Positions 1-58,042 of a stretch of 64,000 nt of DNA are shown piece by piece. The stretch lies in NCBI GenBank assembly GCA_030295235.1, contig AP026133.1, positions 1 to 64,000 of the forward strand. The letters are read 5' to 3'. Both the position numbers and the translations under genes were made by a program. Origin of the DNA: Fistulifera solaris. Lineage: Eukaryota. The notes under the pieces were generated by a model, which had not been told where the DNA came from, ran no database searches, and worked only from the letters and a program-made list of their open reading frames with translations. The stretch's first letter is position 1. Every line of letters begins with the position of its first letter.

Positions 1-277
1 TAACTAACTCCTAACCCAACTCCTAACCCTAACTCCTAACCCCAACCCTCAACCCCAACCCCAACCCTAACCCCAACCCTAACCCTAACCCTAACCCTAA
101 CCCTAACCCTAACCCTAACCCTAACCCTAACCCTAACCCTAACCCTAACCCTAACCCTAACCCTAACCCTAACCCCAACCCTAACCCCAACCCCAACCCT
201 AACCCTCAACCCTCAACCCTAACCCTAACCCTAACCCTAACCCTAACCCTAACCCTAACCCTAACCCTAACCCTAAC
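1..277 (+). repeat. Telomeric repeat array (CCCTAA)n, i.e. TTAGGG on the minus strand; chromosome end
   Basis: Tandem CCCTAA from the window start, with variants (CTCCTAA, CCCCAA, CCCTCAA) mostly in the distal part. Confidence 0.98.
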
Positions 278-585
278 GTCCAAAGCACCATTTCCTGGTG
301 AGGCACGAGGAGAACCCTGTCCATTGAAAAGCAATGCACCCAAGTTTGTCATGCATGCCCCCGACGTTGACAATTGCATCAAGCTTGTTTTGGATGCACT
401 GCAAGGAATCGCCTTCCATAATGACGCCTTCAGTTGTCCACCCCACTACAACAAAGCTCTATGATCATACCCAGCAATTCTACAAAGAGGACACCATTCA
501 CATTGGTACAACATTGATCAAAGTCTGTGAAATGGATCCAAATGCACCCACTCAGAACTGCAGTTGTCTTTGTTGCACAAAATAA
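278..585 (+). pseudogene. rusA: 5'-truncated RusA-family Holliday junction resolvase (copy 1), fused directly to the telomere
   Basis: Across frames it reads RPKHHF...APKFVMHAPDVDNCIKLVLDALQGIAFHND...TTTKLYD...NCSCLCCTK*. This carries the RusA signature D-x-D-N-x-x-K-x-x-x-D-A-L...D and is collinear with 4640-4946. Confidence 0.85.
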
Positions 586-681
586 TTTTGATAGTTTGAT
601 TTGCATTTCCAATGAAATCTTTCTTCTTTCCCTTATTTCCAACATTTCCTTCTATTCCATCTTCCTTACTCCCTTGTTACT

Positions 682-768
682 GATTCCTACTTCCTATTTA
701 CCTAGTTCTAAGTTCCTTTTTCCAAGTTCCAAGTTCCATATCCCAATTTCCAAATTCCTAACCCTAAC
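682..768 (+). repeat. Subtelomeric unit 3' tail (copy 1): TTCCTAC/TTCCAAG-type repeats ending in CCTAACCCTAAC
   Basis: Near-identical to 5573-5656 and related to 5261-5430. Confidence 0.9.
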
Positions 769-810
769 AAAGTTCCGGTAATGGATAAAACCCTTCGGCC
801 GGTATTGGCT

Positions 811-3230
811 TCAACAATAAAACCGCATAAACGAAAGTCTATTTGAATTTGATGAGCTTTCATCGACCGAAATAAGAGGATTCGCGACTGGCACACAACC
901 TTTTTTAATATCCTTCTTCGAAATGTTGACTGAAAAGGGCGGTCTTCCTGACATCGCCCCCTTAGCGCTGTTAATGCAAGAATAAAGTTCTGCACATCCG
1001 ACGCTGATAGGCTTGAACATACCGATGTATTTGCTGGGCTTAAGAAAGTCTTTCGGCAATGACAACCGCAACTGTGTGACTCGGGTGTCATGTAGCAGGT
1101 AGGGGCGCTAGTAGACCTTATTCACGCCCCCGCTCAACTGAAGCCCCGACTTCTATCAATGGTGCATCTTCGTAAAAGTGCTTCGGGTTATGCTTGCGCC
1201 GCTGGCACGGAAAGCAAGGCTTCGTCCATAAAACTAGTGCCTCAACGTCGCCACGATCGCCTTCACAATTAACTCTAACGCTTGACATCGCGTAGCCCCC
1301 AGGTCGCATTGAGTGAAACTCTACAAATTGCTGGTGACTTGTTCGTGAGTAAAGCACAACGCCTCCGCTTTGGGGGGTCCACAATGTGCCATCGCGACAT
1401 CCATTTTCGTTCCAATTCGCCCTTATTCGATAAAGTATCAGCTGGTTTGGAGAAAAGAGTCGGTTTACGCCGACTTGGATTGTTGGTGGAATACTGAATC
1501 CAATGTTGTCGCGGCAATTTTTCGCTTTCATCAGTAGCGTCGATAATATTGTAGTGGACGCAGGACACAAACGATCGCGGCATCGGCGACAACCGGTGCT
1601 GCCTGGAGTGTTGTACACCAAGCAGTTTCCGAGGATGATGTTGAAGTCGCTCAAGAGCGAATTAATGCTTCGGTAGTATCGGCAACGGCTTGCGCAAAAC
1701 GACAGAAGTAGACATCGGTACTGGGACAGCACACCTAATACGATGGGGCCTCAACTTCGTCAGATCCTCGTGAAATTGATCCGCCTTTTGGGTGCTCCGC
1801 CACCGCTCGACCAATGACTTAATTCGACTAAATCTTCTACGCCCTTTCAAGAACGCATCATGGAAGATTGACAAGTACTCAGCTGCAATTCCCAGGGAGA
1901 AAGCGACATCTCTATCCTCTTATTCGATTTTTGGCACGCATGTGACGCCCCGCCACAGAGGAAGCGTTGATTGGATCAGGGCGAAAATTGATATTTTCTG
2001 ATCGCTGACAGAGTTGGCATATCGTCCTTCTACAACGTTGAGCTCCAGCCGCCCGCTGAAAAAGTGCAGCAATCAATCTGAGCTCTTGAGAGGAAATTCC
2101 ATGTTCTGTAGATAGCGTCGCAATTTCGTTTTGCAAAATCTCTTGTATGGATCTCTGATTGCTCCGAAAAATTTTAGATAGCAATGGCATGTGTTGGTTC
2201 AAGCGAGTACTCATGCCTTTGAGCGTAGCAAATTGTTGAACAACCACTTGTATTTCCATCTGCTGTCACAAGTGAACCTTCTGACAGCGAATGATAAATT
2301 GCTGCATTTAATCTTGGAATGGGACCAAAAAGGCTTCGCGATCATCTGACGGGAACCAAACAACAGAAAAAGGAGGCGGCAGCTGCGTCAATTCTGGCAG
2401 GACAGAGGATAAAGGACGAAGCTTAAATCGCGAGATCTAACCAAAGTATTGTGGCTTAAATTGAGTCAAGCATTGTCTCTTTTCTTCCAAATGGTACTTC
2501 CATCACCTCCATCTGACATGGCGAGTGGGTCAGCCGGGTGGAAATTCGAAGTGTGTCTCCGTGAACTCTGCAAATTAGAGGATAAAGTGCGGAACCGGTT
2601 TTCGCCGAATCTAACCAGTGGTCGCCTCCACCAAGGAATTGCGGGTTCTGTTTCGGTTACAACTCTGTTCCACAGAGGAGTTCGAGCCTCATTAGTTTCA
2701 CCAAACTCGTCCGGATGTTTCGCAAGAAAAAGCCAGTGGCCCACGGGATAATAGAGAATGAGATCACCAACCTGTGGAACGTAGATATCTTTACGGTCAG
2801 GCCACGTCCTATCGATTGTCGCGGCGAAAAAAGGAGAAATCCACCCGCCGCCACGATGCTTTAAAGAGTCTGACCATCGTGAAATACCACACCCTTTTTA
2901 TATAGCTTTTTGTGAGTCCGCCTGGTGGTGCTTCCAGTATTATTGTCGGAAATGGTCGGGAGGGAGCAACGACGGAATTCATACACCGCTTCGACCTTCG
3001 CTGAGGTGTCCCAATGTCGACGAAACGTCCGTGAGAGTATTGCATCCAAGATAGAATACGCGTTCTAGTGTTCTTATGGTGAGAATGGCTGTGGATTTTC
3101 ATGCAAGCAAGATGTCTATCGATTACCTCTTACCTTGAGAATTATTGGATATATGTCGAGGGCACATAATTGTTGAATTTGAAGTCGCTTCTTCCGCTTT
3201 TCATCTTCAATATCTTCGCTCCGAAGCGCT
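811..3230 (-). pseudogene. Degraded, intron-containing protein-coding gene of unrecognised family
   Basis: Chain of minus-strand ORF fragments (2861-3049, 2466-2744, 1912-2259, 1662-1874, 1275-1592, 1118-1732, 811-1071) with stops and frameshifts. An apparent GTAAG...CTAG intron at ~3065-3133 joins ...YPIILK to NAYSILDAILSR. Confidence 0.4.
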
Positions 3231-3263
3231 TCCTACAGCATGAGGATTAGTTTATAAGCAAAA

Positions 3264-4164
3264 ATGGAACAGCATCGACCATCGCATAACCCTGAGACAC
3301 ATCTACAACGACTGGGAGGAGCCGGAGGCAGCAACTGATCTGCAAGGAAATCGGTTGCAGGCAGCAGCAGAAGATACACTTCAGGAGCTGGCGTCACTCG
3401 GAATGAATGTTGAATCGGGTTGTCGGTGGAGTCACCGAAGTCTATTCCCCTGTGGTGGTCCAGTGTTTGCTGGGGGCATTGTCTGATCTTCGTATGACCA
3501 CACTTTCAAATGGAGGCCACATTGCACCCCCGGGATGAGACACGAGATGGAATTCGGGCTTTGAACATGAACGTGAAGACCAACCTGGTATTCATCCCCA
3601 TGATGGCAACCAACAAAAAGATCAGTGCCTTTAACAACCTAAAATGAAGCCTGAATTTTGGGATGGGAAAACAGTCTACAACCTGGCGTGGTGGGAAGGG
3701 AATGTTACGTTGACTCGTATGAATGACGGATCAGGGAATTTCTTTTCCAGTCTTGAAATTGGTGCTTGGGTCCCCGATTATTTGATTCCCGAGTGAGTTG
3801 CAGGAGCACAAGCTGGCGATGAAGTGGCTGGCTCACCATGGACCTGTGTTTCCGGACAATGAGACTTACTATCTCAGCCTCAAAAAGGAGTATGTGACGG
3901 TCTTTCTCCCGGAACATGCAAAGTGAGCTTGTTGGTGGCGCGCCGGGCTGGATTCTTCCCTGTTTTCGCCCCCTCAAAAATGCAATCATTCAGAAATCAC
4001 CAAAGTTTGGCTTGAATGGGTACCAGCTGTCGACGATCAATCTCCAGCCCAAGTCCTACCTGGCCATGATTGGATTTGTGAAGGGAGCAGCACCCAACTT
4101 GCAGTTTATTACCTTGACCAACTCACAGAACAAGGTCATGGTCATTGCAAACCGCAACACTTGA
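3264..4164 (+). pseudogene. Disrupted ORF of unknown function upstream of and co-directional with rusA copy 2
   Basis: Protein-like fragments EFWDGKTVYNLAWWEGNVTL..., KLAMKWLAHHGPVFPDNETYYLSLKKEY, and ORF 3916-4164. No family recognised. Confidence 0.4.
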
Positions 4165-4276
4165 GTGATTCAAGCTATTTGTGCTTGTTGATTGTGTTTC
4201 TCGTGAATTAGGTTTTACTTAGGTCTCATTTCTTGTTACTCTTCTTCTGCATTTGCCTCACAGAGATTGCTAGAAA

Positions 4277-4946
4277 ATGTCTTTTGAACCTAGAAAAGCC
4301 GGTTGACTCACAAACCACAGTGGACTTCGACAATGCCAATCAGAAGGGGGGGAAAGCACCCGGTTGTTACAGCTATGTCTCTGGCCCCCAAATCAAGTAT
4401 GAATTCACCAACCACATACTCCCTTGCCTGCAAGATTTCTGGAAGACCAAGACCCCAGTATCGCAGCTATGCAACAACAACAAAAGCAAAGGGCAGAGTC
4501 AAGTTGTACAGTCCAAGTACAGGGAACCAGAAATCCTTTCGTGATGCATTCAGACAAGCATTGAATCATGCACCAAAGGGACTCTTCCCGATGCAATGGC
4601 AATCCATGCTCAATCACCGTGAAAGTTCTACTTTCCAAGACCCAAGACCCATTTCTTACTTGGACCAGCATCACAAGAATGGCTGTTGAAACCAACAGCT
4701 CCCAAATTTGTCACAAATGCTCCTGACAATGACAACTGCGTGAAACTGGTTTTGGATGCCTTGCAGGGGATTGCATACAAGAATGACTCATGCATTGTAA
4801 ACATTGCAACAACAAAGCTATATGACCACACACAGACAACTTATAGGGATGGTGTCAACTATGATGGCACAACTCTTATTAAGGTTGTGGAAATTGACCC
4901 AAACGTGAAGGATTGTGACTGCAAATGTTTTCATTGTGCCAAGTAG
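4277..4946 (+). pseudogene. rusA: Near full-length RusA-family Holliday junction resolvase (copy 2), with several frameshifts
   Basis: ISGRPRPQYRSY...KLYSPSTGNQKSF...(CSITVK/YFPRPKTHF)...APKFVTNAPDNDNCVKLVLDALQGIAYKNDSCIVNIATTKLYD...DCDCKCFHCAK*. The RusA motifs occur in the expected order. Confidence 0.88.
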
Positions 4947-5260
4947 ATAAGAGAGATAATAAAACAACAGTTTTACAATGTTTATATTGTGCCAAGTAGA
5001 TAAGAGAGGTACTAACACAACATTTTCACAAACAGTTTTCATTACCAAATCCGAGCAAAAATCACGGAAACAAGAGGGTCCAAATGTGCAAATATATTTT
5101 TACAGGAGCAAAACATTGATAGATACAACAGTTTTTGCAAGTGCTCATTGTTCCTCATTCCTCTAAATTCCCTATCCCCTCTTGCCTCCCTTTCCTTCTT
5201 ATTCTTCCCCTTATTCCCCCTTTTTCCTAGCTTCACTTCTTCCTCAATTCCTCCTGCTTT

Positions 5261-5430
5261 GATTCCTACTTCCATGTGCGTTACCACTACTCAAATTCCT
5301 ACTTTCTACTTCTAAGTTACCGTTTCTCTAATTCCTACTTCCTACTTCTACGTTTCCTTGTTCCAAGTTCCATGTTCCATATCCCAATTCCCAAATTCCT
5401 AACCCTTCCCAAACGTAACCCTAACCCTAG
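5261..5430 (+). repeat. Subtelomeric unit 3' tail (copy 2, internally expanded) plus interstitial telomeric repeats TAACCCTAACCCTAG
   Basis: GATTCCTACTTCC...TTCCAAGTTCCATGTTCCATATCCCAATTCCCAAATTCCTAACCCT, followed by TAACCCTAACCCTAGCCCT. Confidence 0.88.
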
Positions 5431-5572
5431 CCCTGCTTGCGCGCCACACAGAAGAGGGCTTGAATTTTTCGTGTGCATTATCGTATTAGTGGATTGTCAA
5501 TTTTTTTAGTCTAGGAAAGGCTGTACGGAAAAGTAAATAACAGCTAATAGGGCATATTCCCCGCATCTTCCA

Positions 5573-5656
5573 GATTCCTACTTCCACTTTACCTAGTTCT
5601 AAGTTCCTTTTCCAAGTTCCAAGTTCCATATCCCGATTTCCAAATTCCTAACCCTA
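5573..5656 (+). repeat. Subtelomeric unit 3' tail (copy 3) ending in CCTAACCCTA
   Basis: Differs from 682-766 at only a few positions. Confidence 0.9.
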
Positions 5657-6540
5657 GTCCTAGTGAAGGCATTTTGAGTACCGGTCGGCTAAGTATTTCA
5701 TTCTCGAGTCCTTCTTTTTACTTATAGTGAATGCTCTAACCCTTCGGAAAAGCAAAAACTTTTTGCCTCTCTATTTACCAAAACCGCTGCTAGTGAAGGG
5801 TTTTTGGGTACCGGTTGGGCAATAACTTGATTCACGAGTAGTATTTTCCAGAGGTACTGACTGCTCCTAAGGTCAGAACGTAAAGAACATGCAGAAGGCT
5901 AAGGACTTAGACGAAAAACTGACACCGGACACCGGGCATCCGGTCATTTCCCAAGGCCCATCTTCTTTACGATCTTAATAGCCTACCGGTACTGGCCTAG
6001 AGGTTACGGTACTTGTTGCTGGTACTCGTTACTCGTTACTTGTTTAGGCGCGAATTAAAAGTCGCACTCAAAAAAGTCCCCTCCTTACTTTTTGACTTGA
6101 GACCAGATAAAATACCTAAAAAACAGTGGAGTACTACTTTGTATCGACTGTCAAGGCTCCAGGCACGGGAACGCAACTGCTTGGTACATTTTTCTACGGG
6201 GGCCAAAGTTCCCGCTCCATCCGGTCTTTGGGCCTAAGGGCTTAGGGCCAAAACAACTTCAAGAATAGTCCATAACGCGCATCTTTTACTTTACGACTTA
6301 CTGTCATTATGGGGAGGAAAAAGCCGCGCATAGCGCTTTTTCCTTTGCCAAAAACACGCAAAACAACCCCGATCTTTGCCGCATTATTTAGTTGGTTGTT
6401 GTTGATCGATTCGTTGGTGAACAATATCTTTGAAACAATAAATAATAGTTTAAAGCCAACATTTGTAGAAACAAAACACAAACTTTACCTTCTAAAACGA
6501 GAAAAACAGCCGCAAACAGGCAACGCAACGACATTCTATC

Positions 6541-9500
6541 ATGTTTCGTTTGTCGGTAGGCGTCCTCTGGCTTTTCATTGCATCCTCGTGCATGCAAAAT
6601 GTCATCGGTCAAGGGCCGAACAAATTCTTGTTCCATGTTTCCGATTTGACGGAAGTCTTTGATGAGTTGACGACGATAACGGGTCCTCTTTCCTCGCAAG
6701 ATATACTCAACGCGGAGATTCCTTTCGTCGACAAGTCGATCAACGAAATGATCGGAGGAGATGCGGCCAAGACGATTGCGACACTACTCGACTTTTCCGA
6801 CTTTGTGCAGTTTACGATAGATGAAAATAACGGTGTTGATATCGAGTTGGATCGTGGTGAGATAGCAGCAGAGTTGACGAGCTACTTGCAAAGTTTGGAT
6901 CTTACCTCAGATCTCCTCGCTGGTGAGGGCTGCACGAAAAACATTGATGCTACTTACGTAGAAGGAGGCGAAGAGACGGTGCAATTAACATTCTGTGTAC
7001 TCTTCAACCTGACTAGAAGTACGACATTGAGTGGCGATGGATTGTTTGACAGTATCCCTGAGATCTTTGAGATTGATTTGGATGTTTCATTGGACTTTGC
7101 AGCCACGCTTCTCTTCAAGGCACAGCTCGATATTGCTTTCATTCCAAATGGGGCTACCGCGAACATTACTGTTGATCCTGTCATTGCTGCAATCACCGCT
7201 AACGGAGATGTCGACGTAACTGTGGGAGTAGGTGTGCTAGAGCTTCTATCCACAGCAACCGCGATTGTCGACGCTACTTTCGAGTTGGCGAATTGTGACA
7301 ATGCTACGGAAACTTGCGATAATATTGGCACTCGACTTGGTGACTCGGATTTTTATCTAGAACGCGCCGCGAGCTATTCGATTGCCGGTAACATGACCCT
7401 TGGTTCGACATTCCCTGGTCTCACGCTTGGAGGCGATGCTTCCTTTTCGGTTGTAGAAGAAGACATCTTCAACCCTGCCCCCAATGTCACATTCGAGAGC
7501 TTTAACTTCGAGGATTTTATCAGTTTCAGCCCCGAGAATTCTGTGGCGATGCTTCGTTTGATCGACAGTGCTATCGTTCGTGCCCAAGAAAATGAGGCTT
7601 TCAATACCAATATACCGTTAACCGATACGAGTGTCGCGGAAATCCTGTCGACGGGGTCACTGGTCACTACCAGTTTGCTCCGATTGTTTCAGAAAGTCGA
7701 GCCGTACGAAGATCGACCCACCAAGTCCCTCTTCTTGAAGCAATCCGAGTCCTTCCCCACGAGTACAACGGACACTACGGACGGAAAGACGTACGAAATT
7801 TACGTGCTTGTCGGAGACAGTACGACTGGCACAGAACTCAACGTCAATCCAGATAACCAAGCGGCGCTCTATGATTTAGTGGAAAGCGAAGGAGTGATTT
7901 GCAGTATTGAGTTCGATGAAAACTTTTCCGATTCGACGACGTTCAAGGATGGTCTCTTGACGGTTTTGCAAGCCGCTAATTGTCCAGGACTTACAGTTTG
8001 TGAAGCAGAAACCGACTGCGATTTCGATGAAGAATCAGGAGATTTTTTCAGGCTGCACCGATGGTGCTGATGATTGCCTTCTCGCTGTTGGGATTGATGA
8101 AGACGATCTTGTCTTCATTGTCTCCAATGCCGACAGCGACGTTCATTTGATCGGCTTCATGGAACCACTGGCCACGACGCAAGGCGAAGGAACCATATAC
8201 AAGTTCCCCGTCAATACACCAGCTTTTCCGGCCCTGATTCCGAGATTCCGAAGTTGGCAAAACTTTACAGACTTTCTATCTGACGCCATCGCAAGTAGCA
8301 CGGATATTGTGGACGTCAGCGTAGATTTCAGCTACACTGAAGCAATAGCTCCTGATCCAGCGCAATACGAGCTGGTGATAGGTTTTTCGAAATCTGCTTC
8401 GTTTTCGGTTGGTTTAAATGCTTCTGAAGGTATCGGAGATTTGATTGACATAACGGTTAGCGAGGGGTCTTCGCTTGATCTAACCGTTAGCGCCGCTTTC
8501 GAAACTACCTTTGGTGTGCTGATGGAAGCTGATGACGACCAAAGCTTGACTGTGCTAGCGGAATCATGCGGAGGAGACGGTTTTGCTTGTGTCGCGGATT
8601 CGCTCGACATTGTTCTTTTTTACGTAGAAAACGTCGACGGAGTATCAGAAGACCAATGGATCAATACAACTGTCGCCAGCAGTACGAATAAAAATATCAC
8701 ACAGGAACTTGAAGATGCGATTGGAGAGGTGGCAACCGTCACGGAACAAGGGAGTTCTCTTCTCGTGATCCGATTCAATCCGAACATAACTGATGTGAAA
8801 TTGCTGTTGCTAAAGGTACGTTTCGAGGGGCACGGCATCATACTCTGTTTGCCACTTGCCACTAACAACTGTCTTTTTCTTTCTTGGTGGTTTCAGAACT
8901 GCAATAGTACTGACATCACGACCGAAATGAAACAGAGCAGTGTGCTTGAGTGTCAAGAAGATGAATTGGTTTCTCCTATTGCGAATGATTACGGGTTAGA
9001 AGATTTTAGCTTGTCCAAGCGGAAGTGGCAGATTGTTATTGGAGACGCCTCCATTTCAGCTAACGTGACTGTGAGTCTCAACGTTCAACTTTCTACCAAT
9101 GTTGGCGGCGTTATCGAGGTGACTGCTGAATTGGAGGGCGACATTACGGGGTACTTGGAACTGTCTCTAGGAACTGGAGAACTTCTCCCTTTCAGTGACT
9201 GGCTAGTCGCATTGATTAATATTTTCGATTCAGAAAGTGAGGGTTATATTGCTGATTTTTTCGAAGCGTCCGCAACCTTTGATGCGACTTTTGAAGCTAG
9301 TGTTGAGCCTAGTTCACCGTTCAATTTACTGGCAACCGCCAGCGCAAGTGGAGGTTTCGCGGAACCTTTTGTGATTGATTTCCTTGCTAAAAACTTTTCC
9401 TACCCTGAAATCGAGTTTGACGTCAATATTGAAGGCATTGGGGACGTTCGGAAACTAACCTTCAGACAAGTGGTTGCCATTCTGGCGGATGTGCTTGAGT

Positions 9501-12500
9501 TTTTGGTTGGAAGCAATGAAGACGATGGCGTCGATTCTTGCTCGGGTGGCCTTCTTGGACAAGATGCTTTCACTTATCAGCTACCAGGTACGTCTTACAA
9601 ATGGTTAAGTTTGCGTAATGTTTTGCTTGATCTGTACGCTCACGTTTTTTATCCACTTGACATCACCTTTCATCTCCAATCTTCTATATAGTGATTGGAA
9701 TCAGTGTGTGCAGCACTGCATCGTTTCTCCAAGTTCTTGTCAATGCTGTCGAAGAGCTTCTTGATGAGACGACCACCTCCGGCAGCAAAACGACGACGAC
9801 ATTTTCGTCTTTGGAAGTGAAATTAGAAACGCTCTTGCAAGATGGTGTAGGTGGTACTCCTTCTGTTAATATCACGACGACTTCTGATTCCATTCGTTCG
9901 GAGCTTTCTGTCGAATTGACGCTTGCTTGGACCTTTACTCTAACCGAAACCTTTGTCTTGGACATGTCCAACTACTTTTCGGAAGAGGACCTAGAAAACA
10001 ACGCCGGTCTCGATTTCTTTGCAAATGCATTGCTTCCAGGTACTGGGGAGGGACAGTTTGGGCTTGAAGCAGGGCTGGTCTTCACAATGGGGGTTGGCTT
10101 GGAATACGTGAGCGCGACTAATGACGTCAATCCTTTCGTGAAAGGGACTACGGGATTTAAACTCCAGTTGGCTGCGGCGGGCTCTCTTGATTATGAATGT
10201 TCAGTAGGCGCGTTTCAAGGGGGTGTGGAAGCCGAGTTTAGCTTTGGTGATGGGGACGGTGGCCCAATGGAACTTTCGGTGGGACTCGATGAATCTCTGA
10301 ACTACTATCTTTCAGACCCTGGTGCCGATTCGTCTAACAGAGAAGGTTTCAAAATTGTGTCTGGAATCAGTGGCCTTGTTTCGGAAGTGGAAGCAGTATT
10401 TGCAGGACAAGCAACTGCTAACTTGACGGCTGGATTGAGTTTACTCGGGTTGTCGATCGATGTCGACGCGGCAATAAGTGACTTGCAAGCATTCTTTCTT
10501 GGAAACACTTCCGTTTTGAGCGTTGAGTTTACGCCGTCATTTCCATCCTTTGAGGTTCCCAGTTTGTTGGACATCCTTTTGGCGGAGCCGCAAGGCATTA
10601 TCGATGCTCTGGACGATGTTTTCAAGACTGCCGAAGAGGCGTCTGTCGGAGAGAATGGTATCATCACGCGATTTCCCGTCCCATTCATTCGCAATGGATT
10701 GGGAGATGCTCTCGGAGCGGGAACCTCGAACAACATTTTAGCCAAGGGACGTAATAAAGTGATTCCGTTCCTACAAGAGGGTCTGGACTCTTTTGAAGGA
10801 AAAACAGATACCGTTGGAGATGTTTTGGCTCGATTGATGGATAAAGCACTGGATGCAGTTGAGCCCAGTCTCCGTCTCGAAGGCCGATCCACAGAATTCA
10901 TTTGCTACATTTACAGCAACGACACTTTGCAGCAAGAAGCAGTGGATTGTGTGGACGAAACTAATGATCCTACTTCAGTGATGTGGAGCCTCCCATTCGG
11001 GCAGTCTTTTAGTATTGATCTTCCGCTGGATTTCGATCTGGACGCGGGAAGTTTCCCACTTGAAATCACCTTTGATGGCGGAGACTCGTCTTTGAAGATA
11101 GGATGGGGCCTTGACCTGGCATTCGGTTACATGGAAGGCCCGGGTTTCTTTCTCTTTACGTTCCCCGACGATGGGCCAGAAATAACCATTGAGGCTGGTC
11201 TATCAATTGTTGGCTTTACCCTTGATGCGACGCTGCTATTTTTGAAAGGCTCTCTCAGTAACGGTAACTTAGTGGTTGCTGTCGGATTGTCGGTCGATAT
11301 GGATAAAGGCAATGCGCTGCGATTAAAGTCGGGAGAAAACGCTACGGATCCGCAATACGGCCGCCTTACTCGAGATTCCTTTCGTAAAATCACGAAAATC
11401 AGTGATTTATTCGTCCCAGGTGCGACAGCGGGTGCGACCGTTGAAATTCCAGACGTCCGGTTTCAAGTCAGTGTTGAACTACTAGGAGGGAGCTCGTTAG
11501 CGCAGGAAGTGGTGGCTTACATACCGCAACTTACTGCTGAGATATATGCTCAAGCGCGAAAGGTTCTTTCAACGGATGATTCTCCTGCCAGGAGATTAAA
11601 GTTTGAAGCTGCGCGCAGGAGTCTGGGCGTACATCCTGCTCTTGCCGGGCACGACGCTGCTCCTCTTTCTCGCTCCTTATCATTTTCGGACGAATTCGCT
11701 CTCCTGGCTGACGATTTTGTGTTTGAGGAATGCCCCATCGAAGCGGATTCAACGTTTTGTGCCCGTGTAAGTCAACTGAATTTGGACATGTCGAAAATCC
11801 GAGATCTCGTGGAACCTGTCTTGGTCGAAATAACCAACAAAGATGAGACTGGTTTCCTTGATAAAATGGTCCGGCCGCTGATTATTTTAGAAGAAAGATT
11901 GCCTGGAATCTCCGACATCATGAACAAAAAGATCACCGTTCTCGACATAGCTGAGGTACGTTGGAAATTATTTTTGCTGTTGCTCCATGGCCTCACCGAG
12001 AATGTGCTGCGTGCTGACATTTCCCTCTGCGTATCTAGGCCATGATTGGTCCCAAATCAGGTGCTCCCACGGTTCGTAGAATCATCCAGACGTATCGACA
12101 GATCAATGACTTAATCGGAAGCTTTTTGGAAGATGGCGGTTTGCTCCTGGCCGAGGAATGCGATGTGCTTGACAGTTTCACTTGCACGGGTGGTGTCTTT
12201 AACAACGCGAGACGAGGGTTAACGATACGTGTTTCGAGTAGTATGAGTCAATTGTTTGATTTGGAAGATGCCTCTTTGCTGCCCACGACTCCATCGCATG
12301 TGATTGAGCTGGAAAGAGGTTTACAATCAGGCACATGTACCATCAATACGTCTGACTGCAGCGGAAGTTGCTCCGGATGCACAGGGACTACAAAAATCAA
12401 GTGTCAAAAAGATTACCTCGTTTGTAAAGCAAAAAGCGTGAAAGGGCTTACATTTCCTTTCATGAGCGATTTAACCAGTGTTGTTGGTTTGCTGTCCGGT

Positions 12501-15500
12501 GGTGATATTGTAAGTACCGGTACCAGGTACCGCTAGTACGAAGTCGTTACTGTACATTCGCTGTCACACTTGTCGGTCACAACGATTTTGAATTCATCCT
12601 TGACTCACTCCCTTCTGCAGCAAATTGTTGACTTTACACCCGACCCCGTGACATTTGCTTTTACGTTTGAGCTTTTCTTTGTTCTTTACACACCTCCCAC
12701 TGTTGAACTGGCCATTACGTTTGAATTTACTGCTGTTTTACGAGTTGGATTTGTATTGGATAGCAAGGGTATTCGAGAAGCCGTGGAACAGGAAGAACCC
12801 ATCAAAGCCTTGAACAGCTTTGCTCTGAAAGATACGTTTGACGGCGTCGATGAAGCGATGATTACTTTGACGGCATCTGTCACCATTTCCGTGGATGTCA
12901 GTGCTGTAATAATCAAAGTGGGCGTCAGCGGAGCAATAACATTTATTGTCACTGTCGATTTGTATGATCCGTATCCAGAAAAGAGCGGTGGTTTGGTCCG
13001 TCCTTTCGAACTGCTCACGTCCGGTTCCAATCCGCTCGAATGGTTTGAGTTTGGAATCCAAATCTTTATTACCATTACGCTTTATGTCAAAATCGGTCTT
13101 TTCCTGGGCTTCGTTGAGATTACCTTGTTCAAGTACGAAGTCAGTTTCAAGTTTGACTTGATTCCTCCGTTGTTGTTTGTACCAGCAATCGACGGTATGC
13201 CAGTCTCAGTCACAAGCAGTGGTTCCCTCCAAATTTCGGCTTCCGGTGCTGAGGACCTTGCCTGTACAGGTCTTGAAGGGACCACTGGGAACGAGCGAAT
13301 TGAATGTTTTGAAGGGCTTGGTGTACAAGATTTTACAGGTATTAAAAGCATTACGGATTCTAGTGCTATTGCCAGCATCGCTTCAGAAACGGATGTGGTG
13401 TATCGAAACATGCGTTCTCCCGTCAACACACCAGCTACCATGTACAGTGCCGTGACGTTCGATTACGTGTCAGGGACTGACATTCTATCCAACGATGAAA
13501 TTGTTATTTTTCAAAACAAGGTTTTTATCGGGACCTTTAACATGGCGTTCCGGTCCATTGGAAGGGCGAACATTAAGTTACCCACTCCCGAACAATCCTT
13601 CCTAACGACCACCATCAATGACTGTAATACGCAATGGGAGCTCAACGGTCACACCAACATCGAGATCAATGCTACTGCTTTTCAAAGTGGGTGCGACATC
13701 ATAGCACCTGGTGGAGAAGCCACGGATGCAAAGTTGACGATTGATTTTGGTTTGAAGACAACGTAGCCTGTGAAGATGGCAACATTGTTAAACTTAGCAT
13801 GTCAGGGAACGATTTGGTGGCGGAAATTACCAGGGCGACATCGACGGGTTCGGTAACAAAACAATTTACATTCGGTTCTCCGTTTATTTACGTTGAAATT
13901 AAAATGTCAAATTGCGCAGATACCGTCATAGTTGAGAGTTCCACGACCAATGAAAAGGGATATATCTCAGTTGAGATGGGAGACGATGATGACGAAATCA
14001 CTATCGGCACAGATTCAGCTGGACTTGCTGATATTTCCGTTCGCGTCCTTATTGATGGCAACGATGGAAGCGATACACTGACTATCAATGACAAAGGAGA
14101 AACCTCGGGAAGAAACGGCGGTCAGCTTTCCAGCGCATCCGTCTTGGGTTTAATGTTTGGTGAGGGTGGCAACAATACGGATGTTGACTTTTCCTCAATC
14201 GAAATTGTGAATCTATACCTGAGCAAAGGGTCGAACGAGTTCTTCGTCGACTCCACGCCGCAATATTCCGAAACTTTCATGTACTTCCAGAGCGCGAATG
14301 ACATCCTGACAGTGAATGCCACGCAAGGTAATTTATTTGTGGAAGGTGGGGAGGTAATGATGTGTTTTACGTTTACGGTGCAGGAGACGACTCAACGATC
14401 ACTATTTTCGGTGAAGATGGTGACGATACACTTTTGGTTGACGGTACAGACGGCAATGTCGATATGACAGTCAACACACTGGACACATCATCCGTACGCT
14501 GGAGTGGGGGCTTGAACAATGACGAAATTACGGTCGTACTCACTTCAACTGGATCAACCAATATTGATCTTTTCGACGATAGTGGTCTGGGAATTAACAA
14601 GTTGGCGGTCGAGTGCTCGAACTTTGCTTGTTACTTGCTGAGTCGGCGCACCTTTATTGCAAACATCCACGACGTCTCTGATGTGTCCTCTGATGTAGAA
14701 CGCATCAGCATTGACATTAATAGTGTCAATCTCAACACAATCCAAGTCAATCTCAACAATGGAGAGAATGAAATGTACTTTGACGATACAATGGCACCGA
14801 TGAATGTGTTTGGCGGAAATGATGCAGATTGTAAGTAGCCGCGCCTCGTGCCATTGCAAATCGTCAAAAATTTATCTAACCGTCGCATAAAAGCCTTTTA
14901 CATCGGACAACTGTACAACTCCGAACGAGATGAGGCAGCAAATGTGAACATCAACGATCCGATCTCCACAACGCTAACAACTAAAGGCTATTTGTCGGAC
15001 GGAAATTCCTTCTCGCTTACATTGAATGGCGGGTTTGGCAACGACTATTTCGATGTTCTCCGGAATCGTTTCTTGCTGGATTTGAACGGCGACTCTGACG
15101 ATGATCTGTTTGTTGTTAGGTCGTTCTTGGCTTTAGACTTGGATTCCTTGGGCAATCCTCTTGAGAATACGACCCTGGGAAATATCACCCTGCTAGGAGC
15201 GGATGGATCAGATACGTTCGATTTGTCCGGTACGAGCGACAATTCAACCGAATCTCAGGAATCCTCGGACTCTTCGCAGTTGCCCAATTATGTTGTTAAC
15301 TCATTAGTTGATGTTGATGGTGGCACCGGTAACGATAAACTCATCGTTGTTGGAACCGAAGCAGACGATAGATACGTTATCACTGCTGACTCGGTATTTG
15401 GCGGTGGGTTGAGTATCTCGTTTACAAATATCGAGGCAATCGCTCTTACTGGAGGTGCTGGAGATGACACACTGACCGTGCTCTCTACTAGTCCTAATCT

Positions 15501-18500
15501 CGCGCTGTAAGTTCCTGCTGATTCGAAGAACTGAACTGGATGATGACCATCGTTTCTAACCCACCTTTTTCTTTTGCAGGTATCTTTATGGTGCTGAGGG
15601 CTCAGACACCTTTGTAATAACACCACAGAAGGTTGATCCAGTTGTATCGAAAAACCTTCGAGGCCATAGGGGCATCCTTCGACACACTGTCACTAGTGCT
15701 GATCTTGGTTACGACGGATTAGCTGTGGAGGGCGTTGCTGTTGATGTTCTAGATAATGACGGTGATTCAGGGGCGTATTTCAACGTTATCGAAACCGAAG
15801 TGGTTCACGTTATGGATGAAGATGGACTTGGCACCTTTTCCTTTTGGCTGTACCCCACTGTCACCCCAGATCCATGGGTCACGGTGCAAGTTGCATCCCA
15901 AACAGATGTAAACGGAAATGCGTGGCTGCTGCTAAACGGGGATGATCTAACTGCCGTTGAGCTCGTCTTCAATGAGACGGCGGAGCCCCAAGAAGTAATA
16001 GCCTCCTTCAATCCCGCTGCAGCTCGACTAGAAATTACGGACTACAACTTACTCATCAAGCTTGATCTTGTTCCGTTAGAGTCGCCAGATCTGAGATTTG
16101 AAACGACGGCACAAACTATCCGCCCAGTATCCGTCAAGCTTTTGCCAGCGAAAAATAGCCCACTTGCGAAGTCTGTCACTGTTGTCCAGCCGGATGGAGA
16201 CATTAACGTTGGAGAAGGAGACCAAGGGTGGTCTAGTTCGTACGATGTCTATCTGAGACCATGCACTAATGCCATGATTCAAAACACTATAGTAGAAATC
16301 GTTCCCACGGAGACAGGAAGAGTGACCGTCAACCCCGAAGTCATCGATTCTGCACATTGGGGGAGCCAAGCAGGCGGCTGTAAAGTAACCGTTCAAGTCA
16401 CTCCTGCTGTAGATTCTGATGAAGAAGGCATTCACTTTGTGACGCTAACACACAAAGTCGTTGACTCGAATCAGGAAGACATTCGTCTCTCCGATGACAG
16501 CATATTGTATGCAGAGAGTGTGTTGGTTCGAATTTACGACGATTTAGTTCCGAATGTCGTCATTAAGGAGAGTTTGAGTGTTACAAGCACTGCGGAACTT
16601 GACCAGGACGTGATCAATCTTTGCCGGACGAATCATTTTACGTTGACTCGTACACGATCCGGCTTGCAAGTGAGCCTGAGGAAGATGTTATTGTTACAGT
16701 CGAATCAATTGCAAAGGCAAGTGATTATGACTTGTCTAAGAACACTGAAGAAAGAGTGCAGGTTTTGGTTGGCGCTGAAGGCAGTGAGGCTGAAAGTTTA
16801 CAACTTACCTTTACGAAGACGACATGGTTTATAGAGCAAACGGTCCGTGTTGTAGCCAACAATGACAACGTACAAGAAGGTGTTGACTTGCTCCACTTTC
16901 CGGATCAGCCGTCTTTCTTGGCCTACATCCAAGGACCTATTTTCATAGAGGGTGATACCTCGCCTGACGTTCCAGACATTCGCGATGCTGTACTATTTCC
17001 CGGCGAAAATGACACCAGCTTGTTCGCGTTCTTAGAAACACCTCCATCAGAGTTAGTTTATCCTGAAATGCAAGTGGACACACTTAAAATCTTCAACATT
17101 GACGTGCAAGGATCAAGTCCGTCTATTGGTACGTTGACCGATTCCCAATTCGTCGGATACAATATGGCGAAAGAAATCATTATTGGTGGCGAGAGTAAGA
17201 ATGATGGCATCTCTTACAGCGGGATGGAGGTCATAGAGTTTTACTTTGGTAGCGGTGTTGATAGTATCACTGTCGAGAGTACATCTGTTGCTGTCCACTT
17301 TGTTGACCTGGGTGATGGCAACGATTCTGTGAAAATACAAAACATATCAGGGCACTTTATCATTCATGGCAGTGACGGATCAGATACAGTAACAGTTGCG
17401 TCGGTGGAATCAACAGTGGACGCCATCAAGGGCCTTCTTGCGTTTGACGGAGGCAACGATGATGCTGCAATTGATCATCTTATTATCGACAATTCAGGCG
17501 ACATCACCAGTGACGACATTCTGAACGTCACGCGAAACACAGTCGAAATTGAAAGTATGTCCAATACGGAGGATGAGGAATCACGCATTCCACGAGATGT
17601 ATTTATTTTTAGCCTCAGAGGTTCAACAAGCGGCTACTTCAATCTTGCAGTCAACGACCCCATAACAAACATGACAACAGACACTGATATTCCATACCCG
17701 ACCAATAGTGAGCTTATTGAAGAAGCACTCCAAGATTTAATCTTTCCAGCGGCCAAGGGTGATGTATGCGGCAAGAACCAAACGTCACGTTGTGCGGAAA
17801 CGGTCAAGGTGTATGCGGTCGGAGATGAAGCCTTTGCCGTTTTCTTTTTGGGGGAGCGATTAAACGACGGTTTGACCCTAACTCTAACAACATCGGGCCT
17901 AGCCGACTTCACGCCCGAGATCTTTGTAAACGCCTCGAACGACATCCTTCTCCGCAGTACTGATGTTGCGTACGCAGATGTGGAAGTACTTGATATCACA
18001 ATGGGAAATCCACAAAGTTCAGACTTCAAGATTGTCGTGAATGTCAGAGGAACGACCGCTATCACCACGATCACAACCCAAGATGGTGATGACGCTTTCT
18101 TTGTATCGTCTGAGGCAAACGAAAACGTCATGACTTCCAGCACCGTAGATTTCTTGCATGGATGGCTTGATTACATTGAAAACGATCTCTTCCTCAATGC
18201 TGCGTCAGGGCGCCACCGACTGTTGATCTCCGACGAGAGCAGTTATTTTGGTAAAGGACCTGCGATACTCTCCAGCACCTCGTTTACAGCCATTCATGAA
18301 GATGTTGGTGACATCTTTTCACTGCAGATGGCGGAAATTGGATAAGTGGCGTCAACTTGTGGCTGAGCCCTAACAATGATGAGGTTAGCGTAGTGTCTAT
18401 CGCATCGGATCCAACATCTCCCTCTTTTCAGACAACTACATCGGTTCACTGTGGAGATGGAAACGACAAACTCACGATATCGATTGATGAGGTCAATACA

Positions 18501-21500
18501 GTTTTTGTAGCGAACGGCCAGGGCGGAAACGATATTTTGGATGCATCTGAGTCTTCCGTTCCTGTTATCTTGTTCGGTGATGGTGGCAGAGATACGCTGA
18601 CGGGCGGTACCAGCAACGACATTATAATCGGCGACTTTGGTCGAGTTTTGTGGCGATCATCGTCTAGTGATATTTTCCAGGCAGACAACGCGATCGCGGC
18701 TCGAGCGGGTGGAGGTGGTTATGGCGACTTCACGGATGGTGTCCTCCGCTTCCGTGACTGATGCATTTTCTTTGGCGTTTGACGAGGGTGACAGTGACAT
18801 TATCATTCTAGGTGAAGGCGATGATTGCGCGATCGGGGGCTTTTCTGATGATCAAATATTCGGTAATCTCGGGAACGACATTATAGTAAGTGCTCGAAGC
18901 AATGCTGTTTTGGCAAACACCTTCGTAATACTGACTATTGCATTCTTCAGTTCGGTGATTCCGCACAGCTCCTTTTCGATATGGATAGTGGCTTCCCTAC
19001 GTCGCTTTTAACATTGAGCTGCGATCAAGGAGGAAATGATATTTTGTCTGGAGGCGAGGGAGTTGTGAACTACATTGTCGGTGGAAGTTTCGATGATACA
19101 ATTCAAGGAAGTGGTGCCATGGATCTCGTTTTTGGTGACCATGCCAGCATTAGTCTTTATGCGGACTCATCTCACAAACTGCAGATTGCCGTGACGGTGG
19201 ACCCTGCTTGTGGTGGCGGTTCTGATGAGATCTACTTGGGAGCAGGTGACGACATTGTGAGTATGAATGCATGAATTCCAAATTCGCTTGCCCGGTGTCT
19301 GTCTAATCGATAATATTGTTAACTAGGCTTTCGGTGGTGCGCACGGTGACTATATTGAAGGAAACGCTGGGCAAGATGTGATTTTGGGGGACTTTGGAGT
19401 CTTTGACACGGAGACAGAGTTTTTAGATCATCAGAACTATCAAAGCTTCATTGAATTCCCCGAGTCGGCAGGCGATGATGTGATCCATGGAGGCGACGGG
19501 GACGATTTCCTGCTGGGCCAAGAGGTGCGTAGAGAGGGCGTGATGCGATGAACTCATATTTTCCTATCTCACGGATCGTTCGATCTCGTATCAAACCAAT
19601 TCAATTCTTTAGGGGTCCGATAAAGTGTACGGCGAAGCAGGCAATGATGACATCTATGGCGGTCATAACATTGATTTCGGTGACGATACTGGAGATGAGC
19701 TGAGCGGTGGACTCGATGAAGATTCCATTCTTGGTGACAATGGACAGATAGTACGTCAACTGATAACGTCGGCTTCCGAATTTCCTTGGTTGAACGGTAT
19801 GGTTTGGCTGAAGTATACTGAACCCTTTGATACCGAGGTTGTCCGAGAGATTCGACGTTACGACGACGTTGACGAGATCGGGGTACGTATAATGTGTCAG
19901 TTGTTGGATATGCTGACCAGTTATAATGCCGGGAGCTCACTGTATGGTGTTGGTTTTTCAGGGCGACGATAATATCGAAGGAGGCGACGGAAATGACACT
20001 CTTCACGGCCAAAGAGGTGACGATGGTACGTGGAAGACTGCGAATTAACGCTGTTAATTGCCGTTCGTGTTTTGTTCAAACTAATCGAAATCTCGCCTTG
20101 CTCTATTGTAGTCATTGATGGTGGTAATGGCCAAGATGGTAAGTAGCATACGAAATAGATCAATTGGAAGGAGGTTGTTGCGATCGCCCAGTGTCTCACC
20201 CTCGCTACTCTACGTTGTACAGAGATCTACGGTGAACTGGGTGCGGACACATTATTGGGCGGGAATGGTTCTGATATTGTGCTGGGAGATGTTGGATATA
20301 TTGTTCGCCGCTATGAAAAGGATGGTTCAGCTCGTCTCAACACAGACGGAACTTGGCACAAAGATGTTATTCTGGAGGAGGTTGGATACATTTCGGGTGT
20401 TGATCGCATTTCACAAAAACTCAATGTGAAAACTTCCTCGTTGTCCTTCGAAAGTGTTGTGTCTGCATCGCTTCTCTTCGTCGCACCAGCTTACACTAAC
20501 AGTGGCGGAAAGTATGCCGCTGGCGGTGATGACTGGTTGACGGATCTGATTCAGTTTGAGCTTGTCGATAGTTATGATGACGTAATAGATGGTGGAGACG
20601 GAAACGATATTCTCATTGGGCAGCGCGGCGGGGACCGCATCAATGGAGGGCCAGGGAATGACGTCATAATTGGTGACGCTGGATGGAATGTGGTCCCTGT
20701 CCACATGGATCTTCCTCAAATTCATCAAGTGTATCGAGCTTTGCGTGATCAGTCTAGTAGCAACTACCTTGTCGAAGGTGTGTCTGATAAGGAATATGGC
20801 ATTTTGTTTGCTGCGGAGTATGAATTGTATCCCGACCAGTACGGCCAGATAGATTTCCTCGGATCGATTGTGGACATGGTTCTGAATGCGGATCATGTTT
20901 TGAGCGGTCACAATCTTCTCCGCGATGTTCTCGGAGTTGCTGGCATCAGTACAACAAACGGGAAGTATTGCGTGCACCCAATGTTCCGCATTACACCAGG
21001 ATTCCTGCGAGACAATCAAAAGATACACGGAAATGATGTAATCACATCCGGCTTGGGCGATAACTTGGTCATTGGAGATGATATCAGGGCTTATTCGGGA
21101 ATCGACGTCTCGGACGTCCCAGAAATCGTCAGTATCCAACGTCGCATTGACAATCTGGTAAAAGCACTAGGAGTTCGGCTGAGCACAATGGAGGTGGATC
21201 AGGAATCCTTTTCTGGAGGTATGATTGGGTCATACAATATTAGTGTGGGTGATGATGAGATTGAGACATCGTCAGGAGGGTTTTCTCTTGTCACTGGAGA
21301 CACAATGACCTTAGTTGTACGAACTGTCGGATCAGGATCGTTTGTAAATGGCCAGCGTCTCCTTCTGGACACGGACAAACTCAAATCAATGATGCAGCGA
21401 CTAGCCGACGTTGAGCGCATTCTCTGGGATGTCAATATTTGCTTGTACGAGCTTCACACCGACTTAATGACGCAAATGACGGCAACGTACTCCGACCAAA

Positions 21501-22462
21501 TCGGGCAAAAGTCGACGCATGCTCTCTCCCTGGCGAATGATATCATCACATCAAATGGAAACGGAGACATTCTCATTGGTGATTCGAGTCTGCTTTACTT
21601 CCATGTCGACAAATCTCCAAGTGCATATCGGCTCAGTTATCTCTCTCGATCGCAACGGAGGTTTGCGACACGAAAGCTGCGAAATGTTCCGGACCAGTTG
21701 AGAAGTTCATTGATTTCACACGTGAGCCGATTGTCTCGGTCGGCCGCGTTCAATGGACAAGCCCCCTTTGATGACCTTCCATTCGTATTGACTGTTGGAT
21801 CCGACACGTTGCAACAAAACTTGGCAGTGAATTTGGCAGCGGGTGATTTCGCCTTTTTCGGATCGGTCGTCACGTTCCAAAACCCAAACACCGGATCTCT
21901 CTCTCGATACACACAGTCCATTAAGAACGTTCGCTCAAAACTTGCCTCGGAAGATCCCGTGGCTTCTCTCCAGTTTGGTATTCAATTTTATGATGAAAGA
22001 TATTCGCAGTTACCTGATGCATCTAAACCCAAACTTCACGGAGATTCCTTCACAGGGCTCGACAACAGCAATGTTATGTTGGGTGAATTTTTGACTGGGG
22101 AAATGTACAACGAAATCGACAGTGCCCAAACGACCCGAGTGGCCCTGAATGCCAACGCTTTTTCGTCATCGGCAGCGCAAGATTTTGCCGGCGACTTTTT
22201 TAACATTCAAGTCGGAACGGCTGCCAACGGCCAGTTTGGTCCGGACTTTTCCGTGGATGGAATAGCCATCGATGCACAAGTCGCGGCCCCCATTGAAACC
22301 AGCATGAAAGGACTGTTCCTAGAGCACCGTTTGATCCAAGATCTGCAAGAAATATTGTTTACAGAGAGCGGTCAATTGCGAGCCGATCGAGTGGGTACCG
22401 TCACGACTGGACCCCATTGTTCTGACGCCGAATCATCGTCTACAATCGCTCCAGCCGCCTAA
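6541..22462 (+). CDS. Giant (~5,000 aa) secreted acidic protein with RTX/hemolysin-type Ca-binding repeats and Calx-beta-like modules; 13 exons
   Basis: N-terminal signal peptide MFRLSVGVLWLFIASSCMQNVIG. Continuous plus-strand coding joined by GT-AG introns at 8816-8896, 9588-9691, 11956-12038, 12510-12620, 14831-14893, 15507-15579, 18886-18950, 19257-19326, 19525-19612, 19883-19961, 20026-20111 and 20139-20222. Many GGxGxDxL/I nonapeptides. YTIRLASEP...LTFTKTTWFIEQTVRVVANND module. Apparent frameshifts near 8045, 13750, 14350, 16620, 18315 and 18750. Confidence 0.88.
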
Positions 22463-56283: not shown

Positions 56284-57155
56284 TCGTTTTTTTTGTTGCC
56301 TTGCACAGGTAGATCGATCGATCGATTGCATTACCAGTATTATTATTTGTGAAAACCTTTCCTCTCGAAAACAAAGCACCCTTGCCTTGCACCTTGTACC
56401 GTACAGGGACTCTCTCTACTCTCTCTAGAGAGAGAGACGTGACGGTTTCTTGTTATGGCGTACATTTCAACGGCAACCTACAAAATGGGTGATGTGACAT
56501 GTGACGCACACAGCAGAAGCACGCGTTGTTGTGCGCAACGGAAAGACACGAAAAACGAAAAGAACAAAATAAAAAGGTGTTCCGTCACTCGCAGTAAAAT
56601 TCAACATCTACTTGTATTGGTAACTCGTACTTTGCCATGGACATCTATTCATGTCCTTTTATTTTGTTGCAGCGCCGCGGTTTCCGACTTGTCGAGAAAA
56701 GAAGACGCAGTTCGCTGATACGTTTTGTCAGGGATGCTATAATTGCATCTTAAAAGTGTCGTCGAGACTCTTTGACACGATGTAGTCCATCAACGCTGTC
56801 AAAAACTAGAGTGCTAGAGTGCGTATCCGTCTTGCTCATTCAAAAAAACATCGTGGGTCAACCAATGAACTCTTGGATTGGGGTATCGATCAAACATCCA
56901 TCGGGATCGGGAGGAACCGAATCGAATCCGTGACCCAAATTGCTCGTGACTTCTAAAGTGCTTGGCGAATTGTTCGAATTAAATTTTCGACTGTCTTCGT
57001 CACGACGCGGAACCGTCGTCGGACTATAGTGGTCACAGTAACAATGGCGCGACTTGCAAGAAGGCAGGATCGCGCCACTAGAAAGAGCCAAAACCCAAAA
57101 CGTTTTCATTTTCTTTTGATATTCTTCTCTCGTTGCCGTTCATTCATTTCAAAAG

Positions 57156-58042
57156 ATGGGAGACTATCCATCCCCTTTACTTTATTTCCGCGTAGCAATC
57201 AACTTCTGCCGTGTCGCGATCGTTCTTCGATCGATCCCTGTCCCAATGGAACTCGACCGATCAACAACAAAATCGACCTCCAAACTGCCATCAACGAATA
57301 TACCATTACACCGTCTGAGCCGAAACCAAATTGCTGGGATGTCTCAGCTGTGACAGATTTCTCTGCCCTTTTCAAATCGACTTCTTTCAATGAACCCATC
57401 GGCAACTGGGATACATCGGCCGTCACTACTATGGAGTTGATGTTTGAGGATGCTTCTGCATTCAATCAATTCATCGGAGGATGGGATACTTCCGCGGTCA
57501 CTGACATGCAGTACATGTTTTATGGTGCAACAGCATTCAACAAGAAGATTGGGGATTGGGATACTTCAGCTGTTACCCTCATGGAGGCCATGTTTTACGA
57601 CGCGGCATCCTTTAATCAACCGATCGGTGCCTGGAATACGGCCCAAGTCACCAGTATGTTGGGTATGTTTGAGAATGCCCAGGCTTTTAACCAGAAAATT
57701 GGAAGTTGGAATACTGTCAAGGTCACTAACTTGTCGTACATGTTTCAAGGAGCTACGTCCTTTAATCAAAATATTGCAAATTGGGACACATCGTCGGTCA
57801 ACGACATGACGAACATGTTCTTTGATGCAAAAGCCTTCAATCAACCACTCGGGGCATGGAATGTGGCCTTGGTCACCAGTATGAATCAAATGTTTCATGA
57901 AGCAGCTTCGTTCAATCAGAATATGTGTGCCTGGAAGACTGTTACTGCAGGTGCCACCAAGAACCTCATGTTCACTGAAACGAGTTGCCCTCAGGCAGAT
58001 GAACCGTCGGGTAACTTTTTCTGCCAAGAATGCGTGGTCTAA
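57156..58042 (+). CDS. DUF285/BspA-type repeat surface protein (start uncertain)
   Basis: About 8 tandem 25-aa repeats FNQxIGxW(D/N)TSAVTxMxxMF between Cys-containing caps (DPCPNG...NCWDVS; NMCAW...TSCP...FCQEC). Confidence 0.92.

Follow-up and report, generated by a model that had tools for sequence, protein, structure and literature searches.

Short telomere repeats and fixed orientation mark several elements of chromosome ends. The yeast Y′ element and the fungal telomere-linked helicase genes form a subtelomeric repeated unit that lies in one orientation, is accompanied by short interstitial telomere repeats and encodes a recombination or repair enzyme. HeT-A of Drosophila is telomere-specific, has no reverse transcriptase of its own, is copied in trans and leaves 5′-truncated terminal copies. 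A third group is described in the accessible portion of PMC6431247: telomere-attached Penelope-like elements and Terminons bear 3′ reverse-complement telomere repeats able to pair with the G-rich end, and their copies are 5′-truncated by telomere repeats and stacked head to tail, with host DNA caught between them. RusA, as portrayed in the portions of the literature available to us, is a bacterial and phage enzyme that enters eukaryote work only as an imported tool; the catalytic residues of the E. coli protein are D70, D72, N73, K76 and D91 (PMC10956419, in the part available), and it is described, in a source available in part, as cutting preferentially 5′ of CC. In our literature search, no paper came up that treats a natural RusA of eukaryotes or of diatoms, or one linked to telomeres.

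Here we analyse a 64-kb stretch of DNA (the window) in which RusA genes belong to a unit that looks like a previously undescribed telomere-associated element, and in which the RusA itself looks like a new eukaryotic branch of its family. With moderate confidence, we read positions 279–5660 as stacked copies of this element that spread by a DNA route, through the homology of their tail repeats and with the help of their own RusA. The features on which this reading is built are collected in Table 1.

Table 1. Features at the telomeric end of the window.
Feature	Positions	Strand	Remarks
Terminal telomere tract (CCCTAA)n, noisy variant units	1..278	+ strand repeat	Read from sequence
RusA copy 1, C-terminal ~100 codons only, 5′ side cut by telomere	279..585	+	Two frame breaks
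3′ flank of copy 1, CT-rich	586..770	+	Motif 742–764, interstitial telomere repeat CCTAACCCTAAC at 757–770
Intervening DNA, no recognisable element gene	771..3340	.	Pfam on stop-free pieces
ORF1 homologue (family residues ~150–441)	3410..4164	+	Three frames in assembly; tblastn with 11 ORF1 family proteins and locus ORFs
RusA copy 2, full length, ~224 codons after four +1 frame changes	4277..4946	+	ATG to stop codon
3′ flank of copy 2	4947..5432	+	Motif 5383–5405, degenerate interstitial telomere repeats 5398–5432
Solo copy, last ~90 nt of 3′ flank	5571..5660	+	Motif 5633–5654, then CCTAACCCTAG

Because the window opens with a telomere tract, which holds 31 of its 35 matches to CCTAACCC, it represents a left chromosome end. 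The host is a eukaryote, specifically a diatom: besides this telomeric start, the pyruvate carboxylase gene of the window is interrupted by introns, and among named proteins it comes closest to those of pennate diatoms (Mayamaea 80%, Nitzschia 78%, Seminavis 77% and Pseudo-nitzschia 75%), against 65–68% for other stramenopiles. Two DUF285 genes in the window agree with this placement. In Phaeodactylum the telomere unit is AACCCT, according to the accessible part of PMC9266582. The DUF285 (BspA-like) genes, at 56957–58042 and 59256–60107 (+), share a 300-nt direct repeat that is 93% identical at 57306 and 59365. Elsewhere in the window, ~12 kb of successive long open frames at 6496–18345 (+), with changing frames, two in-frame stops and no Pfam match, may be one giant gene broken by indels or short introns, and a 767-codon open frame at 20159–22462 (+) gives a weak match to RTX calcium-binding repeats (E 1.2e-4, under the cut-off).

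A six-frame scan of the whole window for D.DN..K returned exactly two matches, at 363 and 4725, reading DNCIKLVLDALQGIAF and DNCVKLVLDALQGIAY, and tblastn with eight family proteins found no third RusA copy in the window. The final 86 codons of copy 2 (4686–4946) lie in a single frame, and the piece 4686–4943 matches the Pfam RusA family PF05866 at E 6.3e-11 (43.4 bits, cut-off 22.8). Copy 2 has D-x-D-N-C-x-K plus a downstream Asp (KNDS), copy 1 likewise has D-x-D-N-C-x-K, and the tails of the two copies read NCSCLCCTK and DCDCKCFHCAK. An exhaustive HMMER search with the 86-residue piece of copy 2 yielded 213 proteins at E ≤0.001 and 23 at E ≤1e-10; the best full-length matches are 200–260 aa long, with the match running through the Cys tail. 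When the family profile was used instead, 52 proteins were listed, about 40 of them long-form (E 2.7e-43 or better, plus one fragment). These long-form clusters span 200–284 aa, and every one derives from an environmental or run-assembly contig of roughly 0.8–6.6 kb (ENA, JGI or Logan), four of them under the JGI automatic name 'RusA-like endonuclease'. The same profile search returned no long form from NCBI, UniRef, MMETSP or EukProt, the first NCBI entry being a 148-aa bacterial RusA. A scan of viral contigs gave only phage-type RusA at 25–62% identity, highest over short stretches, with no long form among the best 80 loci kept. Two candidate family members, P0008 and P0032, were discarded as repeat-protein artefacts, one being an insect protein and the other an Ig-like protein of Pseudomonas.

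The active site is kept throughout this family. Across 48 aligned members, P71, R76, H138, P162, D165, N166, K169 and D183 are invariant, D163 is present in 47 of the 48, and H59, C226, C228 and C231 are also conserved in at least 90%. By motif and spacing, D163, D165, N166, K169 and D183 match D70, D72, N73, K76 and D91 of the E. coli enzyme, with the third catalytic Asp ~19 residues further on. His59 and the C-terminal CxCxxC occur together in 45 of the 48 members and are both absent from the other three, with no mixed case. From this covariation we infer a His-Cys3 metal clasp that would tie the N-terminal extension to the C-terminal tail.

Fold comparison was needed because no RusA was reached, even at E 10, when PDB sequences were searched with the family profile. 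We used a full-length relative, P0003, which is 46% identical to the C-terminal part of copy 2 and itself matches PF05866 at E 4e-15 (56.9 bits). Its AlphaFold model has a pLDDT of 90.2, with extension and tail both confidently ordered, and in a Foldseek search its top seven PDB matches were all E. coli RusA (probability 1.00, TMt 0.66–0.74), followed by unrelated proteins. The homodimer prediction scored 0.77 against 0.01 for the best control, with runs sharing at least 49% of contacts and a partner pLDDT of 70; the mark used is attained by 21 of 30 proteins solved as pairs and by none of 23 solved as single chains. In the relative, the predicted interface comprises strand 186–194 and the helix bearing D165 and K169, although this pass may stem from solved RusA dimers already known to the model. 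What supports the fold, the dimer and the metal site thus comes from the relative and from family alignments, the window's own protein being broken in the assembly.

In a quick maximum-likelihood tree of 126 rows, 48 long and 9 short or fragment rows fall on one side of a branch (SH-aLRT 99), with 69 short RusAs on the other; labelling by length alone needed 9 changes, and the 9 'short' rows within the long-form clade are fragments or short forms. Members of this clade are lengthened by a basic N-terminal tail, by a beta extension at the N-terminus that bears the conserved His and by the C-terminal CxCxxC. Together, these data show that the window RusA belongs to a eukaryote-type RusA clade, has the full catalytic set and is probably a dimer. 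An earlier note on this DNA, made from the letters alone, had proposed much of this, and its proposals hold up well: the identification as RusA is borne out by the Pfam match and by the fold of the relative; the D-x-D-N-x-x-K motif and downstream Asp that it described are invariant or nearly so in the 48 relatives; the phylogeny it suggested as a check places the long forms on a branch side of their own; and the eukaryotic host agrees with the telomere, the introns and the diatom relatives of the carboxylase at 75–80%. Its extra Cys cluster, put forward as possibly metal-binding, is family-wide as CxCxxC and, judged by its perfect covariation with His59, stays a good metal-site candidate.

Whether the two copies are functional genes depends on their frame breaks. 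One alternative holds that neither still has a function in this genome, both being dead relics; as assembled, copy 2 has four breaks, all +1 (near 4300; near 4412, FTNH/YSLACK; near 4597, KGLF/RCNGNP; and near 4621, ITVK/FYFPRPK), and copy 1, cut at codon ~130, has lost its N-terminal ~130 codons and directly abuts the telomere tract. Against this, the assembly breaks an essential gene in the same manner: pyruvate carboxylase is split (ANRG/EIA) by an extra G in a GGG run near 51684 (51675–51690), at the universally conserved start of its biotin carboxylase domain, most likely through an assembly indel in an otherwise intact gene. The copy 2 break near 4597 is an extra C in a CCC run. The public run X1 contains this DNA, its short-read contigs (51.6 Mb in total) covering 29 of 30 bins of 290–6000, and they differ from the window mainly by gaps. 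Of the other runs compared, X2 gave no contig on this stretch and X3 a single one, and the runs listed included none of RNA. Over 3257–4282, an X1 contig shows 2 substitutions and 12 gap letters. Over 4253–4620, 371 contig letters stand on 368 window letters, with no substitutions and 5 gap letters (net +3), and at 4621 an X1 contig drops one letter, which repairs the break there. For the other three breaks of copy 2, the gap set +2, +2 and −1 is the sole combination that would fit repair, as judged from gap number and sign because gap positions were not printed.

The reads treat copy 1 differently at its two breaks: a C inserted behind 307 repairs the first, whereas the second, at 425–432, persists in a high-depth contig that carries 4 substitutions and a 6-nt insert at 425–429 and is still frameshifted, a point in favour of the relic alternative. 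Selection argues the other way. The copies are identical at 52 of 85 aligned codons (61% protein identity), with pN 0.255 and pN/pS 0.32 over those 85 codons; because pS, at 0.80, is saturated (above 0.75), a corrected dN/dS cannot be given, and the selection bootstraps, computable in 236 of 1000 cases, were not relied upon. Close relatives (P0184, P0185, P0186 and P0188) are intact at 67–73% identity. The codon comparison indicates old lineages that were separately selected, under long purifying selection. We therefore regard the relic alternative as very unlikely for the pair: the assembly is indel-prone, the breaks of copy 2 look to be mainly, if not entirely, errors of assembly, and the gene is probably whole in the living diatom, while copy 1 is, in our reading, a truncated relic. 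The earlier note had anticipated both the protein-level conservation and, in line with the split carboxylase and the X1 contigs, an error-prone assembly in which copy 2 could be intact. The read comparison it called for mends copy 2 at 4621 and leaves copy 1 frameshifted at 425–432. What the earlier note missed is that copy 1 is truncated by the telomere and stays frameshifted in the reads, that RusA is one half of an ORF1–RusA unit and that this unit is tied to telomere repeats.

By tblastn, RusA is preceded by ORF1 both in the window and in 4 of the 11 related loci that come from other organisms (L001, L003, L005 and L007). In L001 it is ~440 aa long and stops ~100 nt short of RusA; in the other three its C-terminal part stands upstream of RusA. 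The ORF1 family (11 clusters, P0208–P0218) combines an N-terminal NPYKK...VVHM-x-NNP-x-CxCxxC motif with a conserved 250-residue C-terminal domain. Within that motif, H-M-x-N-N-P-x-CxCxxC (P0208 residues ~44–59) has the same Cys spacing as the RusA tail. The N-terminal motif was not found in the window, where ORF1 is either cut short in a rearranged unit or has its N-terminus hidden by indel noise. ORF1 had no match in Pfam or among PDB sequences, and its protein-atlas scores of 0.85–0.89 fall under the 0.9 level for a lead. The best fold matches to its model are dominated by OB-fold proteins (RPA, MCM10, Teb1, SSB and POT1); with a top Z of 4.3 and a model pLDDT of 54, a single-strand DNA-binding OB-fold protein is a lead only.

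Downstream of RusA, a CT-rich 3′ flank of roughly 160–440 nt closes with CCCAATTTCCAAATTCC and then (TAACCC)n. This motif followed by telomere repeat occurs three times in the window and in 6 of the 11 related loci (L002, L004, L005, L008, L009 and L010, where 1–7 telomere units close the flank), with a weaker form in a seventh, L001. The contigs of L003, L006 and L007 stop 137–235 nt after the RusA stop codon, too early for the motif, and in L011, a distant member, motif and repeat are absent. Past the repeat, the DNA of the loci is unrelated. Outside the terminal tract, CCTAACCC is found only at the three tail ends of the window, at 4 sites where 0.79 are expected over the whole window. Since the post-tail repeats have the polarity of the terminal tract, each unit sits on the tip side of an old telomere remnant and points its head outward. 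The units sit on old telomere repeats, are 5′-truncated to different extents (most severely in the solo fragment 5571–5660) and are capped by new repeats. In another organism, L005 1797–1897, past the telomere remnant, shares ~75 nt with L006 623–700, upstream of RusA; in L006 this stretch precedes a ~20-codon ORF1 remnant and RusA, and the same remnant occurs in L004. Such sharing hints at short, tandem, ORF1-less units.

Subtelomeres commonly hold duplicated gene families, and ORF1 and RusA could accordingly be ordinary subtelomeric host genes whose duplicates, truncations and repeats are by-products of breakage, healing and exchange, in a unit with no special adaptation to telomeres. The unit containing copy 2 is preceded not by telomere repeats but by 2.6 kb of unrelated DNA (771–3340) that is not element-like, which fits such an origin, and no movement has been observed, which speaks for host genes and against the element reading that we prefer. 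Between the two copies, a 210-codon open frame at 1121–1750 (−) is bromodomain-like (E 0.0036, under the cut-off) and may be captured host DNA. Two observations nevertheless make the host-gene explanation quite unlikely: gene order, 3′ motif and orientation to the telomere repeat recur in other organisms amid unrelated flanks, and no member appears among the named NCBI, UniRef, MMETSP and EukProt proteins, the same sets that supplied the diatom carboxylase matches, an absence that would be odd for a housekeeping gene.

Read contigs add joints within the unit. They connect the tail end (764/768) to two points, 4253 (24 nt ahead of the RusA start codon) and 4594; six differing continuations follow position 768; and X1 contig depth climbs toward the 3′ end, from 19.7 (3257–4282) through 32.6 (4253–4620) and 70.8 (4594–5250) to 139 (5256–5446). 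Joints and depth are suggestive only, because each joint has a short side of just 26 letters, at 90% likeness, a range that calls for caution, and because depth summed over contigs does not measure copy number.

These features bear on how the unit spreads. An RNA-templated route would make it a non-autonomous telomeric retroelement with RusA and ORF1 as accessory cargo: a transcript ending in (CCCUAA)n would pair with the G-rich overhang and serve as template for a reverse transcriptase acting in trans, either that of another element or telomerase, with incomplete copying producing the 5′ truncations. Such a route explains why the 3′ end is sharp and the truncations form a series, and does so no less well than a DNA route. 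It also fits the 17-nt motif at the 3′ terminus, conserved across loci with proteins of only 40–50% identity; the 3′ flanks of the window copies, at 87% identity versus 73% for the coding part; the joint 24 nt before the RusA ATG, which resembles a transcript start; the intronless state of both ORF1 and RusA versus the intron-bearing host carboxylase; and an architecture shared with telomere-attached Penelope-like elements and Terminons as described in the available text of PMC6431247. Pfam searches, however, found no reverse transcriptase among the window ORFs, the 55 stop-free pieces of 771–3420 or the ORF1 members, at a sensitivity lowered by indel noise. No Rfam family, hammerhead included, was found at E ≤0.1 in window positions 1–7000 or in loci L001–L011; the element ends bear no poly(A); and what the unit carries is a nuclease for DNA junctions, not a Gag-like protein that binds RNA. 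An RNA route is possible in our view, but on the unlikely side.

We favour the DNA route because the unit carries an enzyme of recombination and no reverse transcriptase was found in it. A full unit runs 5′-ORF1 (~440 aa)–RusA (~224 aa)–CT-rich flank ending CCCAATTTCCAAATTCC–(TAACCC)n-3′, with the tail always toward the centromere and the head toward the chromosome tip. Under the DNA route, a chromosome end would prime on, or recombine with, the telomere repeat at a unit's tail, and the unit would then be copied or integrated, either by telomere-primed break-induced copying or by integration and rolling of a circle. The 'roll and spread' of telomeric circles is a comparison for the latter. Self-encoded RusA would cut the four-way or D-loop joints formed in the repeats, where the CC preference of the E. 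coli enzyme would suit the CCCTAA strand, and erosion followed by healing would yield truncated, re-capped heads.

More broadly, and as a possibility that we hold less likely than not, diatoms may harbour an unrecognised class of telomere-specific elements that attach through homology to the telomere repeat itself and copy between chromosome ends with their own phage-derived resolvase and possibly a single-strand DNA-binding partner. Such elements would do by recombination what telomeric retrotransposons do by reverse transcription, and might serve as a built-in reserve for maintaining telomeres. If our reading is right, a natural, selected clade of eukaryotic RusA is wired to telomeres, and the system would offer a new handle on the resolution of recombination intermediates at chromosome ends, on the building of subtelomeres in a major algal group and on whether telomere-attached elements can spread without reverse transcription. 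For biochemical study, it would provide a compact, nuclear-adapted junction resolvase with an unusual putative metal clasp.

Among described systems, the closest enzyme is the RusA of E. coli prophage DLP12 and lambdoid phages (PF05866; PDB 1Q8R, 2H8C and 2H8E), which shares the HMM match, the fold and the catalytic motif and likewise forms a symmetric dimer through an active-site strand and helix, a dimer that is predicted here. Phage-type RusA is ~120 aa long, whereas the clade of the diatom element reaches 200–284 aa with its basic tail, His-bearing extension and CxCxxC; and the E. coli and phage enzymes belong to phages, whereas the window RusA is encoded at a eukaryotic chromosome end and falls in a separate clade. 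HeT-A differs in encoding a Gag-like protein, in its poly(A) end and in replacing telomerase repeats, whereas the window element coexists with TTAGGG telomeres. Where yeast Y′ carries a helicase ORF, the window unit pairs a junction resolvase with ORF1, with no match to a helicase family; it is further set apart from Y′ by a 3′ end sharply conserved across species and by its diatom host. Terminons and Penelope-like elements have a reverse transcriptase and a hammerhead, neither of which was found in the window unit, whose genes are ORF1 and RusA. Yet as far as the available text of PMC6431247 describes them, Terminons (Athena and Coprina) share with the window unit the tail-in orientation, 3′ reverse-complement repeats, 5′ truncation, stacking and an accessory nuclease as cargo.
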